From assembly GCA_041659005.1 (NCBI GenBank), contig JBAZZD010000002.1, forward strand, positions 25,817 to 89,816: DNA of 64,000 bases. Reading direction: 5' to 3'. The position numbers were made by a program, and so were the translations under genes. The DNA comes from Minisyncoccota bacterium. Lineage in GTDB: Bacteria > Patescibacteriota > Minisyncoccia > UBA6257 > GWB1-50-10. The notes below the pieces were generated by a model. The model did no database searches. It was not told where the DNA came from and saw nothing but the letters and a program-made list of their open reading frames with translations. Shown one piece after another: positions 8,856-40,689 of the stretch (within the stretch, counting starts at the first letter, position 1; each line of letters starts with the position of its first letter).

Positions 8856-9982
8856 TAAAAAAATTACGAATTCCTAAAAGTTCTTCTCCTGATTTTGTTT
8901 TTTTGGGATTTCTTGCGGTACTTATTATATTTGGACTTGTAATTCTTACAAGCGCGTCATCTGATCTCGCAAAAACAGAGACCGGGGACAGTATGTATTA
9001 TTTGAAACATCAAATAACAAATGGATTGTCAGTAGGTATAATTGGATTTCTGATTGGATATTTTCTTTATTATCGAATATGGGAAAAAATTTCAGTTCCG
9101 CTTCTTGTTCTTGGAATTGTTCTTCTGTTTCTCGTTTTTACCCCGTTAGTTGATATTCAAAAAGGGGGTGCAAGATGGATTGATTTTCAAATTTTTAAAT
9201 TCCAACCTGGAGAATTTATTAAATTAGCATTTCTTGTCTACCTTTCTGCATGGGTTGGTAAAAATCAAGAGCGGAGCAAAAGTTTTATTGGTGGGTTTAT
9301 TCCGTTTTCACTTCTTGTTGGGGTAGTGATGATATTACTTATATTACAACCAGCAACTTCAACTGCTGCTCTTGTTTTCTTCTCATCACTTATCACTTAT
9401 TTTATTGCGGGTGCAAAACCTAAGTTTTTTATTGGTATGATCCTTATTGGCGCCATCTCTCTTGGCGTACTTATTTTTGCTGTCAAAAATAATGACGGCG
9501 AAAATTATCGGTTAAAACGTGTTGCAACTTTTTTACACCCAGAAAGTGATCCACTTGGTTCTGGGTGGCACATAAATCAAGCGCTTAATGCAATTGGATC
9601 TGGTGGTATATTTGGCGTTGGGTTTGGGAAATCAACTTCAAAACTTTATTTTCTTCCTGAGCCAATAGGAGATTCAATCTTTGCGGTTATCGCCGAAGAA
9701 CTTGGATTTATTGGTGCTGTTGGTTTTCTTTTCTTTTTCCTTGCATTTTTATGGCGTGGATTTAAAATTGCTACACGCGCACCTGACAATTTTGCTAAGT
9801 TTTTGGTTGTTGGGTTTATGAGTATTCTTGGTCTCCAAGCGTTCGTAAACATTGCCGCCATATCAGGAGTTATTCCGTTAACTGGTGTGCCATTGCCATT
9901 TGTGAGTTATGGCGGTACTGCACTCGCAGTATTTCTTACTATGTCAGGCATTATTGCGAATGTATCAAAATATAAACGATAA
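8852..9982 (+). CDS. ftsW: SEDS-family peptidoglycan glycosyltransferase FtsW/RodA
   Basis: Ten TM segments; GDSIFAVIAEELGFIG and PLPFVSYGGT motifs; 4-nt ATGA overlap with the upstream gene. Confidence 0.85.
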   Translation: MIKKLRIPKSSSPDFVFLGFLAVLIIFGLVILTSASSDLAKTETGDSMYYLKHQITNGLSVGIIGFLIGYFLYYRIWEKISVPLLVLGIVLLFLVFTPLVDIQKGGARWIDFQIFKFQPGEFIKLAFLVYLSAWVGKNQERSKSFIGGFIPFSLLVGVVMILLILQPATSTAALVFFSSLITYFIAGAKPKFFIGMILIGAISLGVLIFAVKNNDGENYRLKRVATFLHPESDPLGSGWHINQALNAIGSGGIFGVGFGKSTSKLYFLPEPIGDSIFAVIAEELGFIGAVGFLFFFLAFLWRGFKIATRAPDNFAKFLVVGFMSILGLQAFVNIAAISGVIPLTGVPLPFVSYGGTALAVFLTMSGIIANVSKYKR

Positions 9983-23263: not shown

Positions 23264-23292
23264 TTGACAAAGTCAAGTAGATATGATATAAT
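23264..23292 (+). promoter_or_regulatory. consensus sigma70 promoter TTGACA-17-TATAAT
   Basis: TTGACA at 23264-23269 and TATAAT at 23287-23292, about 170 nt upstream of tRNA-Leu. Confidence 0.6.
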
Positions 23293-23298
23293 GCAAAT

Positions 23299-23424
23299 AC
23301 ATTAATAATTTGATTGCGGAGTTAAAAGATGTTTGACCCATACTTTTCGCCGAATTAATGATTTCTTTTGGCCTTATCATTATTCGGCGTACATAAAGGC
23401 CAGCCCCTCCAAATGGAGGGGTTT
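23299..23424 (+). ncRNA. candidate leader or small RNA between the promoter and tRNA-Leu
   Basis: Structured segment: cgccgaattaatgat...atcattattcggcg stem, then cccctcc-aaat-ggagggg followed by tttactatttt (terminator-like). Confidence 0.3.
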
Positions 23425-23464
23425 ACTATTTTCCGACATTTTGTATACTGATTCAGTTAATAAT

Positions 23465-23548
23465 GCGCGGGTGGCGAAATTGGTAGACGCACTACCTTGA
23501 GGTGGTAGCGCTCGCAAGGGCTTGCAGGTTCAAATCCTGTCCCGCGCA
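23465..23548 (+). tRNA. tRNA-Leu (anticodon GAG), CCA not encoded
   Basis: Acceptor gcgcggg/cccgcgc, D-arm with GG, anticodon loop ttGAGgt, long variable arm, T-arm ggttcaaatcc. Confidence 0.85.
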
Positions 23549-23558
23549 CTAATAAAAT

Positions 23559-23586
23559 AACATCCGCAATGCGGATGTTATTTTAT
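23559..23586 (+). terminator. intrinsic terminator after tRNA-Leu
   Basis: aacatccgca-at-gcggatgtt followed by atttt. Confidence 0.55.
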
Positions 23587-23711
23587 GCGGATAGAATTTG
23601 AACGAGGGGTGGGTCGCCCCGCAATGCGGGGCGTGGTTAGCTATTCGAAACCGCAAGGTGTCAGAAAATTTCGTCCGCGAAATTTTGTTCAATTCCCTGT
23701 CCCGCGCACAA
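23587..23711 (+). other. tRNA-like element or pseudo-tRNA with inverted T-arm/acceptor-like ends
   Basis: 3' end tgttcaattccctgtcccgcgca copies the tRNA-Leu 3' end; 5' end gcggatagaatttgaacg is its approximate reverse complement; no valid cloverleaf. Confidence 0.4.
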
Positions 23712-23723
23712 ACAAAAAATATC

Positions 23724-23754
23724 CCGATGAATGGGATTTTTTTGTGTCACACGA
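23724..23754. terminator. bidirectional terminator hairpin
   Basis: atcccgat-gaa-tgggat flanked by aaaaaat and ttttttt. Confidence 0.5.
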
Positions 23755-23900
23755 AAGCGGATTTGAACCGCGGGCTCCCTGTTTTCTTAGCAAATGAAAT
23801 GAGTTTAGAAAACAGCAGTGTCGCATATTATGCGACCCGCAATCTTTGATTTTGAAGCCGTAGGTTTCGAGCACGGCAGCCCAGTAGGTGATTTTACTAA
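23750..23900 (+). other. second, more degenerate tRNA-like element
   Basis: Begins gcggatttgaaccgcggg (same 5' motif family); 3' end ccgtaggtttcgagcacggcagccca is weakly T-arm-like. Confidence 0.25.
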
Positions 23901-23917
23901 ATCATGCGAGAGGCAAA

Positions 23918-23950
23918 TCCCCGCCTATCGGCAGGCAGGCCGTCCTGCGC
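23918..23950. repeat. variant copy of the GC-rich palindromic repeat
   Basis: ccccgcctatcggcaggcagg is a near reverse complement of the 59492 copy cctgcctgccgtaggcagg. Confidence 0.5.
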
Positions 23951-24008
23951 ACTAAAACGCGAAAAGAAAGAATTTTCTTCCCCCTTTTTTTCGTTGTATA
24001 ATAAAAAA

Positions 24009-24794
24009 ATGAATTTTTTCAGCGAGGGTTTTATATCAAAAAGATCTAAGCCTTTAATTTCAAGTGAATCAATAAATTCTTTGAAATCAGAACATCTGAA
24101 AGAGGGTGTAAGTCCGATTATTGCTTGTATAGAAACTCCCAATCAAGCTTTTAATGATCATAATATAAAAGATTTTTTAAAAAATAGCACAAAACTTACT
24201 GATGTGGATTATTTTGGTGATTCCATTGAGCAAAAAGTGCGTGGATTTAAAAATATGGGAGATGGTTCATTTGTTATATCACCGATAGACAGTTCGGATA
24301 AATTTTCTCAAAAATTTCTCGATTGCACCGGATTAGTAGTAGCCGGTCAAAAAAAAGAAACAAAAGAAAATATATCACTATTAAGTCATCAAAATCCCGC
24401 TCATTTTTTAAATGAAGAATTTTGGAAAACAAATTTTAAAAATGACCTTAGACAACAATTGCAAGAATTAAAGAAAAAAAGTGTGGATAAAACTGTTGAT
24501 GTGGTAATTGTTGGTGGAAATCATTTTTTAAATGGCGAGTATAGCAATAGCAAAGAATATAGAGATAATTATCTTGATTCAATCAAACAATTATCTGAGG
24601 TGGTTGTCGAAGTTTTCAATTTTGAACCCGTTGTTATTACAGGACCAAAAACAGTTCGAGGAAGGCAAACTGATGACGTATATTATGATAATGAACATAG
24701 GAGATTATATATAGTGCGCAAGGACATTGGTGATACAACTACCGAAAGTTTTCTTCCTCGTGATATAGAGAAGCAAGAAAAAAAATGGAAATGA
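24009..24794 (+). CDS. hypothetical protein
   Basis: Track ORF 23904..24794; likely start is the in-frame ATG at 24009 (MNFFSEG), downstream of the repeat and tRNA-like elements. Confidence 0.5.
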   Translation: MNFFSEGFISKRSKPLISSESINSLKSEHLKEGVSPIIACIETPNQAFNDHNIKDFLKNSTKLTDVDYFGDSIEQKVRGFKNMGDGSFVISPIDSSDKFSQKFLDCTGLVVAGQKKETKENISLLSHQNPAHFLNEEFWKTNFKNDLRQQLQELKKKSVDKTVDVVIVGGNHFLNGEYSNSKEYRDNYLDSIKQLSEVVVEVFNFEPVVITGPKTVRGRQTDDVYYDNEHRRLYIVRKDIGDTTTESFLPRDIEKQEKKWK

Positions 24795-25323: not shown

Positions 25324-25550
25324 CTTTTAATTAGTATAAACAATTTCTTTCCGCTTACGGAGAATATCATTTCGAATAAATATGTCGGAATAAAATAGAT
25401 AAATTACTGAGTAAAAGGAATTAAGAAATAGACTTTTTTGCATCGTTCAAATCCCTTTAGGTTGCGTTTGCAATAAAGTGTATTTCTTTTACTTTTACGA
25501 AGATTATTTATATTTTATGGAGACCATTTATAAGAAATGATATTCGTAGT

Positions 25551-38746: not shown

Positions 38747-38868
38747 TCTATCAAAAAAACTTCCTCTTCTGCGACGCTCCGCATTTTGGCGAAAACACCG
38801 ATTCTATTTTTTGGCTGCGGGTGTTGGACGATTTTCGAACCAATCTCAAGAGCTTATAATTCTTCTTT

Positions 38869-39396
38869 TTAATATATTTTGAATTCTGATATGTTCAGTA
38901 ATTTTCTAATCTCTGTTGCTTGTTCTGCATTTTTTGTATTTTGTGTCGAAGTTTCAGAATCAAAAAAGGAATTTGATAGAGCCATAAGAATTGTTCCTGC
39001 TTTTAATGCATCTTCTTTTTCCATTTTTATGAGTTTAATAATATAAAAAAATGAATAAAAATTAATGTTGCTTGTTTTTACTTGTAAGAGTGCTGAAAGT
39101 TCCCGTATTCTACTTGAAGCAATTTTGTATTCTTCTTTCATGATGTCGCAAAAAATAGTATTTCCGTAAAAATTTGCATATTTGATTAAATCGACAGCAA
39201 TTTCTTCAACTATCTTTTTTTGGTTATTAATTGGTTTTAAATATTGATTTTCAATTATTCTCTGAAGTGAAAAAATAATTATTGCAATAATTATTGCGCC
39301 GAGAATATTACCGTTTTGCGTAATATATCGAAAACTCAAACCAGAAACAACGCCAGTAATAAAGATTAGAACAAGTAGATATAGATATTTCCTCAT
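38869..39396 (-). CDS. hypothetical membrane protein
   Basis: Two N-terminal TM helices. Confidence 0.45.
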   Translation of the reverse strand: MRKYLYLLVLIFITGVVSGLSFRYITQNGNILGAIIIAIIIFSLQRIIENQYLKPINNQKKIVEEIAVDLIKYANFYGNTIFCDIMKEEYKIASSRIRELSALLQVKTSNINFYSFFYIIKLIKMEKEDALKAGTILMALSNSFFDSETSTQNTKNAEQATEIRKLLNISEFKIY

Positions 39397-39398
39397 TG

Positions 39399-39698
39399 TT
39401 AATTAATTTGTTTATTTTTGTATCGTTTTGCGATGAATCTCGCAAACAATCTCTTGTGAAAAGATGACATTTGTTTTACTGTTTTTTCTGCCTTGCGTGG
39501 GTTACTACTTTGAAAGGCTGCTAATGGTTTAAACCAAGTGCCACGACTTGTATATTTTCCACCCCAACCCCTCATATGCTCGTGCCATCGACGCCAAACG
39601 GGTCTTCGCGTCATTCCAGCATAAATTTGTTTAGATCCATCTGGTCTTGTGCTTTCTCCAAGATATACAGTTCCAGGTTTTGTTTTTTTAAAAAACAT
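39399..39698 (-). CDS. GIY-YIG nuclease superfamily small protein
   Basis: GTVYLGES...KQIYAGMTRRPVWRRWHEH gives the GIY...YIG...R..EH motif. Confidence 0.55.
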   Translation of the reverse strand: MFFKKTKPGTVYLGESTRPDGSKQIYAGMTRRPVWRRWHEHMRGWGGKYTSRGTWFKPLAAFQSSNPRKAEKTVKQMSSFHKRLFARFIAKRYKNKQIN

Positions 39699-39702
39699 TT
39701 GA

Positions 39703-40095
39703 TTATTTCTTATAAATTTCTAATTCAATTTTTTTATCTATATCTAATAATGCCTGCTTCATCTCACTAATGACGTTGTGGTAAAAATCCCTCCTTTTTT
39801 TTGGATCTTTCTCATTTATTAAAAGATCAAAAGCGGAACAGACGTTTTGAGGAAATAGATATAAAAAATCAAAACACATTTCAGCTTCATAGGTTCCATT
39901 TTCCATACCATCTATAAGCTTCTCTTTGTATTCCTTAGTTTTTCTATCTAAGCTCTCCCTTTTATTTCGTAATGATTCAATTATTCTTTCTTTTTGCCAC
40001 TTTTTTAGATCAGAGCGTGAAGATATAATTTGAACTATTATTCCGATTAAACCTCCAATAATAACCCCAGTAAGGCCTATGATTGTTTCCGTCAT
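39703..40095 (-). CDS. hypothetical protein with N-terminal TM
   Basis: TM then charged coiled region. Confidence 0.45.
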   Translation of the reverse strand: MTETIIGLTGVIIGGLIGIIVQIISSRSDLKKWQKERIIESLRNKRESLDRKTKEYKEKLIDGMENGTYEAEMCFDFLYLFPQNVCSAFDLLINEKDPKKRRDFYHNVISEMKQALLDIDKKIELEIYKK

Positions 40096-40426
40096 AACAT
40101 ATATGATAATCTAAAGAAATCAGACTGCAATAAGAGGGGGGCTTTTATGTTATTGTTGACACCAAATGGAGAAGAAATAATAATGTAAGAAGATAGTCTG
40201 ATCTTTGACGTGACAGCACGGGATATAGTTATGCTGAGCTCATATAGAGCTTGGCCAAACTCCAAATAAAAAGGTACAGTGCTAAAAGAAAGAAACCGAA
40301 AAAAGTATGCGGTTTTTTTGTTTTATACTGTGTTGGTTTACGTCGAAAATAGTGCTCATTTTCGACGCGATTCATACTCCTATTTATATTTGCACCTTAC
40401 GGTGCATTCTCCTTCGTTAAATCGGC

Positions 40427-40563
40427 TGCGGGACCGGAGTCGAACGTCGCTCGTAATTCACTCGCTCCCTAAAACCCCTCGGTTTTAGTATTTCCGCCAA
40501 GGAAGACTAAGTGTTCTTCCTTCGCCATCTCCTATTCGAATCCAGTATCCCACAAACGCAAGG
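40427..40563 (-). other. tRNA-like element downstream of tRNA-Gln with tmRNA-like 5' motif
   Basis: Minus-strand 5' end GUGGGAUACUGGAUUCGAAUAGG (CUGGAUUCGA matches the tmRNA D-analog); 3' end UUCGACUCCGGUCCCGCAGCC copies the tRNA-Gln 3' end; 5' and 3' ends are mutually complementary; too short for a canonical tmRNA. Confidence 0.35.
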
Positions 40564-40600: not shown

Positions 40601-40620
40601 TGTGTGCATTGCTGCGGGAC

Positions 40621-40689
40621 CTGGATTCGAACCAAGATTGACGGATTCAGAGTCCGCTGTCCTACCATTAGACGATCCCGCAATTATAT
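40621..40689 (-). tRNA. tRNA-Gln (anticodon CTG), CCA not encoded
   Basis: Minus strand reads gcgggat...gcgga-ctCTGaa-tccgt...cttgg-ttcgaat-ccagg-tcccgc-a; acceptor, anticodon and T stems all pair. Confidence 0.8.

Follow-up and report, generated by a model that had tools for sequence, protein, structure and literature searches.

Downstream of a tRNA-Leu(GAG) gene, the 64,000-nucleotide stretch of DNA analysed here (the window) carries two small units, E1 and E2, which belong to core families A and C and are read, with a probability of about 0.55 and on the basis of sequence comparison, as RtT-like tRNA-trailer RNAs that would be acquired, lost and exchanged as cassettes between repeats. The window is a housekeeping stretch (secA, rmuC, rpmA, rplI, ctp protease) of a Parcubacteria (Patescibacteria/CPR) chromosome, whose closest relative in the genome collection is the MAG LiPW_41. 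The tRNA-Leu gene does not encode CCA, and its last ~24 nt, comprising the T-loop and the 3′ strands of the T-stem and acceptor stem, are copied downstream in both orientations, giving the following arrangement:

23465–23549, plus strand: tRNA-Leu(GAG) gene (ARAGORN; Rfam RF00005, 53.7 bits)
23552–23586, plus strand: spacer 1, a perfect 17-bp palindrome with an A-run and a T-run, resembling a bidirectional terminator
23587–23709, plus strand: E1, whole unit
23587–23603, plus strand: 5′ arm of E1, GCGGATAGAATTTGAAC, antisense of the T-loop, the T-stem 3′ strand and part of the acceptor 3′ strand of tRNA-Leu
23604–23686, plus strand: core of E1 (family A), a purine-rich junction followed by helices P2, P3 and P4 in a predicted four-way junction
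23615–23633, 23646–23664 and 23665–23686, plus strand: helices P2, P3 (GCAA loop) and P4 (UCCG loop) of E1, respectively
23687–23709, plus strand: 3′ arm of E1, a direct copy of the tRNA 3′ end with the last 14 nt exact and the T-loop portion changed
23710–23745, plus strand: spacer 2, with a hairpin at 23721–23737 followed by seven T; terminator-like
23753–23952, plus strand: E2, an expanded family-C unit
23753–23775, plus strand: 5′ arm of E2, with an 11-nt perfect T-loop complement at 23759–23769
23939–23952, plus strand: 3′ arm of E2, the third copy of the tRNA end, GCCGTCCTGCGCAC
23953–23996, plus strand: original tRNA trailer, homologous to the sequence right after tRNA-Leu in the empty-site loci L202, L203 and L205

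The last 13 nt of the tRNA, CTGTCCCGCGCAC, start at 23537 and are found again at 23697, without mismatch, and at 23940, with two mismatches (direct-repeat spacings of 160 and 243); since three such matches were reached in none of 100 shuffles, the downstream copy of the tRNA 3′ end described in an earlier sequence-only reading is confirmed. The same applies to the inverted copy reported at the 5′ end of the first element, as complementarity between the 5′ arm of E1 and the T-loop/T-stem of tRNA-Leu reaches 87% and the arm pairs with the 3′ copy as a closing helix (P1) in the minimum free energy (MFE) fold. Closed by its two arms, E1 forms a four-way junction also kept in relatives, and its core scores 84 bits against covariance model R1; the earlier statement that neither element forms a cloverleaf is therefore correct in the tRNA sense, with no match by ARAGORN or Rfam, but misses this conserved fold. 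E2 had been recognized as a second, degenerate unit, which is real and has a 5′ arm starting at 23753; the end previously assigned to it (23903) was too short, since the unit runs to 23952. Because it shares four collinear blocks (including 23860–23872 and 23906–23920) with the units of L182 and L116, E2 is placed in family C, with insertions. A hairpin with a T-run is present both before and after each unit, the one that follows the third tRNA-end copy extending to about 23996, and spacer 1 together with the 5′ arm of E1 makes a long imperfect palindrome that takes in the 3′ end of tRNA-Leu.

In the MFE structure predicted for the co-transcript of tRNA-Leu and the units, the 3′ half of the tRNA is paired, through the terminator, with the 5′ arm, and the 5′ acceptor strand of the tRNA with the distal copy; the arms could thus act in cis, in tRNA maturation or terminator extension, and not just as a closing helix. 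The junction J1/2 of family A (23604–23614 in E1) is purine-rich and GGGAAAGGGG-like, and complements the pyrimidine-rich 3′ strand of the T-stem and acceptor, G-U pairs included, so that the 3′ arm or the tRNA could serve as an alternative pairing partner.

The only strong promoter near tRNA-Leu, a perfect TTGACA-17-TATAAT at 23264–23292, is located upstream of the tRNA. This sigma-70 promoter, which also has a TG, is followed by a ~135-nt unit (23264–23432, plus strand, promoter included; folding z = −4.1) with a strong terminator at 23402–23423, just before tRNA-Leu. The unit includes a 9-codon ORF, MFDPYFSPN (23329–23358), which L202 (MFDPYFLPDQ) and L204 (MFDPYFLPN) retain with synonymous changes; the unit may act as a leader peptide/attenuator or as a small RNA. 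At 25440–25462 (plus strand), in a variable region upstream of rpmA, there is an isolated T-loop/T-stem-like fragment, CGTTCAAATCCCTTTAGGTTGCG, perhaps left over from a further copy of a tRNA end.

The behavior of the units at the DNA level emerges from close strains, picked by their identical L27 protein. In L202, L203 and L205, whose flanks are 85–92% identical to the window at the nucleotide level, tRNA-Leu is followed directly by TAAAACG..AAAGAATTTTCTTCC, a sequence that in the window starts at 23953, after the third repeat; this empty-site junction identifies positions 23550–23952 (403 nt) as an indel bounded by tRNA-end repeats, with its right edge marked by the trailer that begins at 23953. 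L204, 99% identical to the window over tRNA-Leu and spacer 1 (the spacer itself being identical), has at the same site a single family-B unit, which is 92% identical to the unit of L001, and a C>T change is common to the distal repeats of L204 and the window. The 5′ arm of L204 continues the terminator palindrome seamlessly, and a perfect palindrome with 28-nt arms (L204 2128–2180) spans the acceptor end of tRNA-Leu, the trailer and the terminator, reaching into the first bases of the family-B unit. One genus-level clade therefore contains three occupancy states, namely empty (L202, L203, L205), family B (L204) and A plus C (window). The region 3′ of tRNA-Leu is a variable hot spot among relatives, and in the window the distal repeat is decaying and the tRNA-proximal copy intact. 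At other loci the repeat reaches 45–58 nt past the tRNA, through the terminator (L187, L116, L162); units occur in tandem (L025, L034, L061), in L061 with small ORFs between them; and L185 has two B units at different tRNAs that are 93% identical, spacer included. In another occupied/empty pair, L037/L051, the spacer is replaced and there is no clean interruption. The units thus behave as cassettes, and the combination of repeat boundaries, differing occupancy and tandem copies suggests that gain, loss and swapping most likely proceed via recombination between tRNA-end copies.

A further unit of the window trails a tRNA gene on the opposite strand and scores 89.6 bits against the family-A covariance model:

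40611–40682, minus strand: tRNA-Gln(CTG), the second tRNA in the window with a trailing unit (ARAGORN, Rfam)
40425–40553, minus strand: family-A Gln unit, with a P2/P3/P4 core as in E1
40534–40553, minus strand: 5′ arm of the Gln unit, antisense of the tRNA-Gln T-loop/T-stem
40425–40445, minus strand: 3′ arm of the Gln unit, a copy of the tRNA-Gln 3′ end
38814–38841, minus strand: degenerate third repeat of the T-loop and 3′ end of tRNA-Gln

Downstream of the Gln unit, the degenerate third repeat closes a ~1.6-kb segment (38814–40445, minus strand) with three small ORFs, of 130 aa, 99 aa (weak GIY-YIG match) and 175 aa (weak DpnII/MboI-like match), which looks like a small repeat-bounded island beside the cassette. 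Small stand-alone GIY-YIG nuclease-like ORFs (83–105 aa) are also found 8–200 nt from tRNA genes in L061 (3555–3839, between two family-B units), L143, L002, L146, L090 and L118, as at 39399–39698 of the window, a recurrence that is no measure of enrichment because the loci had been picked around tRNAs.

Related loci were gathered via rmuC and, in metagenomes, via the 5′ half of tRNA-Leu(GAG). About a fifth of such tRNA genes in the gathered loci are followed by a 95–200-nt unit that ends in a copy of the gene's own 3′ end, and the cores of the units fall into families A (window E1, L023, L130, L187, L162, L161), B and B2, C (L182, L116, window E2), D and E. When BLAST and nhmmer profiles of unit interiors were run on 1.58 Mb of related Parcubacteria loci, 45 of the 46 nhmmer matches (families A–E) were either located 18–95 nt 3′ of a same-strand tRNA or formed the second copy of a tandem. 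The tRNAs concerned belong to at least 12 species, namely Leu-GAG, Leu-CAG, Gln-CTG, Gln-TTG, Glu-CTC, Lys-CTT, Arg-CCT, Arg-TCT, Arg-TCG, Val-TAC, Val-GAC and His-GTG. Two profile-independent tests agree with this distribution: a tRNA's own 3′ 14-mer is copied downstream in 30 of 261 cases, compared to 2 upstream, and an antisense copy of the T-loop/T-stem is found within 140 nt downstream of 23 of 260 tRNAs and upstream of none. Moreover, the 5′ arms pair more strongly with their own tRNA than with others (−21.5 versus −16.3 kcal/mol; 36/40, p = 8e-7), and the terminal inverted repeats are specific to the adjacent tRNA and are not transposon ends. In families B–E the left edge of the repeat is sharp and falls at T-loop position 56/57, and some family-B copies lack recognizable arms (L200, L059, L022). 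The family A core is retained at syntenic sites of the window and L023, despite about 65% protein identity. Literature searches returned no prior description of such units in CPR/Patescibacteria; these small structured elements trailing tRNA genes appear, from the sequences compared, to be widespread, modular and previously undescribed in Parcubacteria.

Individual loci show further variations in arm structure. A family-B unit behind tRNA-Val(TAC) (L103 974–1376) combines a Val-specific 5′ arm with a 3′ arm like the 3′ end of the neighboring tRNA-Ile(TAT), a mixture that may reflect recombination of units belonging to different tRNAs. In L066 (~9050–9260, minus strand), a family-D unit comes after a tRNA-like 3′ end, GGGGGTTCGAATCCCCCCACCTCCAC, for which there is no ARAGORN call; its 5′ arm complements the acceptor strand over the full length, and an inserted hairpin separates the acceptor part of the arm from the T-stem part (compare L001, L156 and L204).

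The interiors of the units bear the marks of conserved structure. In a seven-sequence alignment of family A, 82% of the cells expected to pair in the four-way junction do so, against 39–52% in slid controls; compensatory changes are observed at 15 pairs, against 3–7 in the controls, and the covariation score was reached by none of 500 shuffles. The covariance-model search of the loci covered their first half. In family B, an anchored motif count reveals that the three-bp helix at the base of P2 switches between GGC/GCC, GCC/GGC, CCC/GGG and GAC/GUC around a conserved G(G/C/A)A / GA internal loop, and two hairpin loops, YAGCAGR and GAGCGRCGGCGA, are conserved; the structure of this family was not recovered by MAFFT and RNAalifold, the alignment being of poor quality. 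GNRA/UNCG-type loops are common among units, and in 38 of 43 the tRNA-sense strand has a more stable fold than the antisense (mean −5.9 kcal/mol, p = 1e-7). The strand asymmetry and hairpin covariation could also be compatible with a site that folds as single-stranded DNA. As the spacers (18–95 nt) consist mostly of hairpin and leave no space for a promoter of the unit's own, we infer that the units are probably co-transcribed with the tRNA.

Homologous units with compensatory changes, present behind many tRNAs in many Parcubacteria, favor the second of two readings originally offered for the locus, a family of small tRNA-derived structured RNAs, over the first, remnants left after excision or decay; that the elements are decayed is contradicted by their interior, which is a conserved structured module. 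Covariation in relatives, named at the outset as an observation that would speak against a scar, is found in families A and B.

No Rfam family accounts for the units. In the window and six loci, Rfam 15 returned tRNAs only, at gathering as well as permissive thresholds, and the RtT model (RF00391) had no match at E ≤ 10 in window positions 23300–24100 or at E ≤ 0.5 in the six loci; neither did ARAGORN detect a tmRNA or pseudo-tRNA at E1 or E2, so that the tRNA, tmRNA, pseudo-tRNA and Rfam checks proposed earlier all come out negative for the units. Their architecture is nonetheless that of RtT RNA (rttR, RF00391), which at E. coli tyrT/tyrV comes immediately after a same-strand tRNA gene. E. 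coli RtT has at its end a copy of the final 19 nt of tRNA-Tyr, beginning inside the T-loop like the 3′ arms of the Parcubacteria units, which copy the terminal ~16–22 nt of their tRNA; it opens with GGGGAAGGAU, the antisense of this 3′ copy, and the Rfam consensus pairs both as a closing helix, again as in the Parcubacteria units; and it has a multi-helix, GA-rich interior and occurs in tandem repeats (four units in MG1655). This RNA is reportedly released from the tyrT transcript by processing (Bosl & Kersten 1991; Rossi et al. 1981). Unlike RtT, the Parcubacteria units have several unrelated cores (A–E), trail at least 12 tRNA species instead of one, leave RF00391 unmatched, are preceded by a terminator-like palindromic spacer, lack CCA because the tRNA genes encode none, vary in presence, absence and cargo among close strains, and belong to the phylum Patescibacteria. 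They are thus best described as RtT-like in architecture and outside RF00391; rttR, tpr and the tyrT operon are mentioned in a recent preprint (bioRxiv 10.1101/2024.07.17.603846). Bacterial Y RNAs (YrlA) and other tRNA mimics resemble the units in being small RNAs that combine a long 5′/3′ stem with a tRNA-derived module; in the units, however, the T-loop sequence is base-paired, so that there is no T-arm/D-arm mimic, and there is neither an Rfam match nor an rsr neighbor.

If the units are tRNA-trailer RNAs, the tRNA promoter would drive their transcription by read-through; the closing helix, together with the 3′ end, would mimic the acceptor/T-arm stack recognized by tRNA end-processing enzymes, releasing stable RNAs of which the cores would be the functional part; and homologous or site-specific recombination of the tRNA-end copies would allow cassettes to be gained, lost and exchanged. 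Several features temper this scheme. Since the spacers resemble strong intrinsic terminators, read-through may be limited; 3–8 nt of the acceptor copy often stay unpaired in the closing helix, which makes the mimicry of a processing substrate imperfect; and the arm-less copies of family B, together with the decaying distal repeat of the window, suggest that the arms may partly be a by-product of unit insertion. The relic-like state of that repeat counts against the scheme, as does the pairing of the 5′ arm with the tRNA in the modelled co-transcript, which would be harmful to the latter.

The properties of the units as DNA raise the alternative that they are mobile cassettes and nothing else, miniature integrative units without ORFs that would be functionally comparable to attC sites or to the hairpin attP of CTX phage, in which the sense and antisense tRNA ends would fold into a duplex mimic of the target site, a recombinase supplied in trans would insert them at tRNA 3′ ends and any RNA would be incidental. 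An indel exactly bounded by tRNA-end repeats, differing cargo at one site, repeats that run through the terminator in L187, L116 and L162, the 28-nt-arm palindrome of L204, the 93%-identical copies with the same spacer at different tRNAs of one genome (L185), arrays with small ORFs (L061 and the Gln island) and the sharp repeat edge at T-loop 56/57 in families B–E would all fit such elements. The parallel with integron attC sites and ORF-less cassettes extends to units of 60–140 nt with imperfect inverted repeats around a variable branched tip, to head-to-tail arrays at one attachment point and to strand-specific folding; in contrast, the attachment point is here a tRNA gene, the arms vary with the adjacent tRNA, and the base of the stem, where integron core motifs would be expected, lacks the RYYYAAC/GTTRRRY boxes, the GAAC/GTTC motifs at the inner end of the stem being a partial fit to the consensus. 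No recombinase is encoded in or near any unit whose neighbors were examined: Pfam searches of neighboring and window ORFs revealed no integrase, RT or TnpB, no IntI is present among the window ORFs scanned, and the proteins that recur within 3.5 kb downstream of 30 units are products of housekeeping genes only. Scanning viral contigs with the family A core gave one chance match, inside a phage ORF, and with the family B core none, and blastn of the region plus a B unit against 50,697 phage records found no match; these scans lend no support to an origin from phage attP. Furthermore, a circle of 150–200 bp would be implausibly small, the L037/L051 pair is not a clean insertion, and both the conserved GNRA/UNCG loops with tandem G-A motifs, which are RNA features, and the persistence of cores at syntenic sites over the distance that separates the window from L023 speak against this alternative. 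On balance, cassettes of DNA alone are a rather unlikely reading.

A more ambitious proposal is that of a tRNA-anchored system in which the sense/antisense pair of tRNA ends, as folded DNA or as an RNA guide, would steer a trans-encoded recombinase that inserts, excises and exchanges small RNA or ORF cassettes at the cognate tRNA gene. This is a speculative and improbable scenario; if true, it would constitute an integron-like or guide-programmed platform with tRNA genes as attachment sites in CPR bacteria, and E. coli RtT would be a fossil of that cassette process.

The earlier suggestion that the repeats are the scar of an integrase-mediated insertion, with a larger island at the 3′ end of the tRNA reduced by deletion to about 130 bp, must be considered very improbable and is largely refuted already by the conservation of the families. 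Like tRNA-integrated islands and prophages with their attL/attR sites, the locus has direct repeats of the tRNA 3′ end, a segment missing in close relatives, an intact proximal and a decaying distal copy, and tandem occupancy; the hot spot downstream of tRNA-Leu and the real 1.6-kb, ORF-bearing segment with a third repeat behind tRNA-Gln can be added to these similarities. The suggestion is right in that the 403-nt segment is an indel bounded by tRNA-end repeats, but no integrase lies in or next to it; the segment (23550–23952) contains no ORF, and hence no integrase inside, and the comparison of related genomes, although it yielded empty sites (L202, L203, L205) and a different cassette (L204), did not disclose an integrase-bearing island between the repeats. 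Differences from such islands include the length of 150–400 nt, the lack of any integrase, integrase fragment or other gene, the internal antisense att copy and the conserved RNA-like core; unit sizes are narrow, and structured interiors are common to many genomes and tRNAs. A tRNA-specific antisense 5′ arm, moreover, is foreign to att scars and has no explanation in a simple one.

Degenerate tRNA duplicates, pseudogenes or an unusual tRNA/tmRNA-like gene are most improbable, for in spite of a 3′ end identical to that of the tRNA, a four-way junction and a family A stretch, GUGGCGGAAAU, that recalls the D-arm region of tRNA-Leu, the ARAGORN and Rfam tRNA/tmRNA models find nothing at the units, the same core is present behind tRNA-Gln with Gln-specific arms, and the 5′ end of the units is the antisense of the tRNA 3′ end and not a copy of the tRNA 5′ end.

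Other candidates were rejected as well. Retro-copies of a mature tRNA or a primer-binding site do not agree with copies that lack CCA and follow the gene sequence, or with an antisense arm that mostly stops short of the tRNA 3′ terminus; a split or permuted tRNA or an intron in the T-loop, raised by the co-transcript fold, has no feature in its support, and bacteria are not known to have the splicing endonuclease required; and a MITE is at odds with arms that vary with the adjacent tRNA and with the lack of a short target site duplication, the repeat being a 14–60 nt tRNA end.

In summary, a design that for about 35 years was known from RtT RNA, an isolated enterobacterial curiosity with no clear function or origin, is now seen in a distant, genome-reduced phylum, with several core families, a dozen tRNA species and turnover at the strain level. 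For Parcubacteria, tRNA-end repeats are unreliable markers of integrase-borne islands, and among the conserved non-coding RNAs of CPR bacteria the units may represent a class overlooked by current annotation (Rfam 15). Comparative data are now at hand for testing the role of the cores and the way in which the units spread, and the combination of sense and antisense tRNA ends may be a general way of making or moving small RNAs at tRNA genes.
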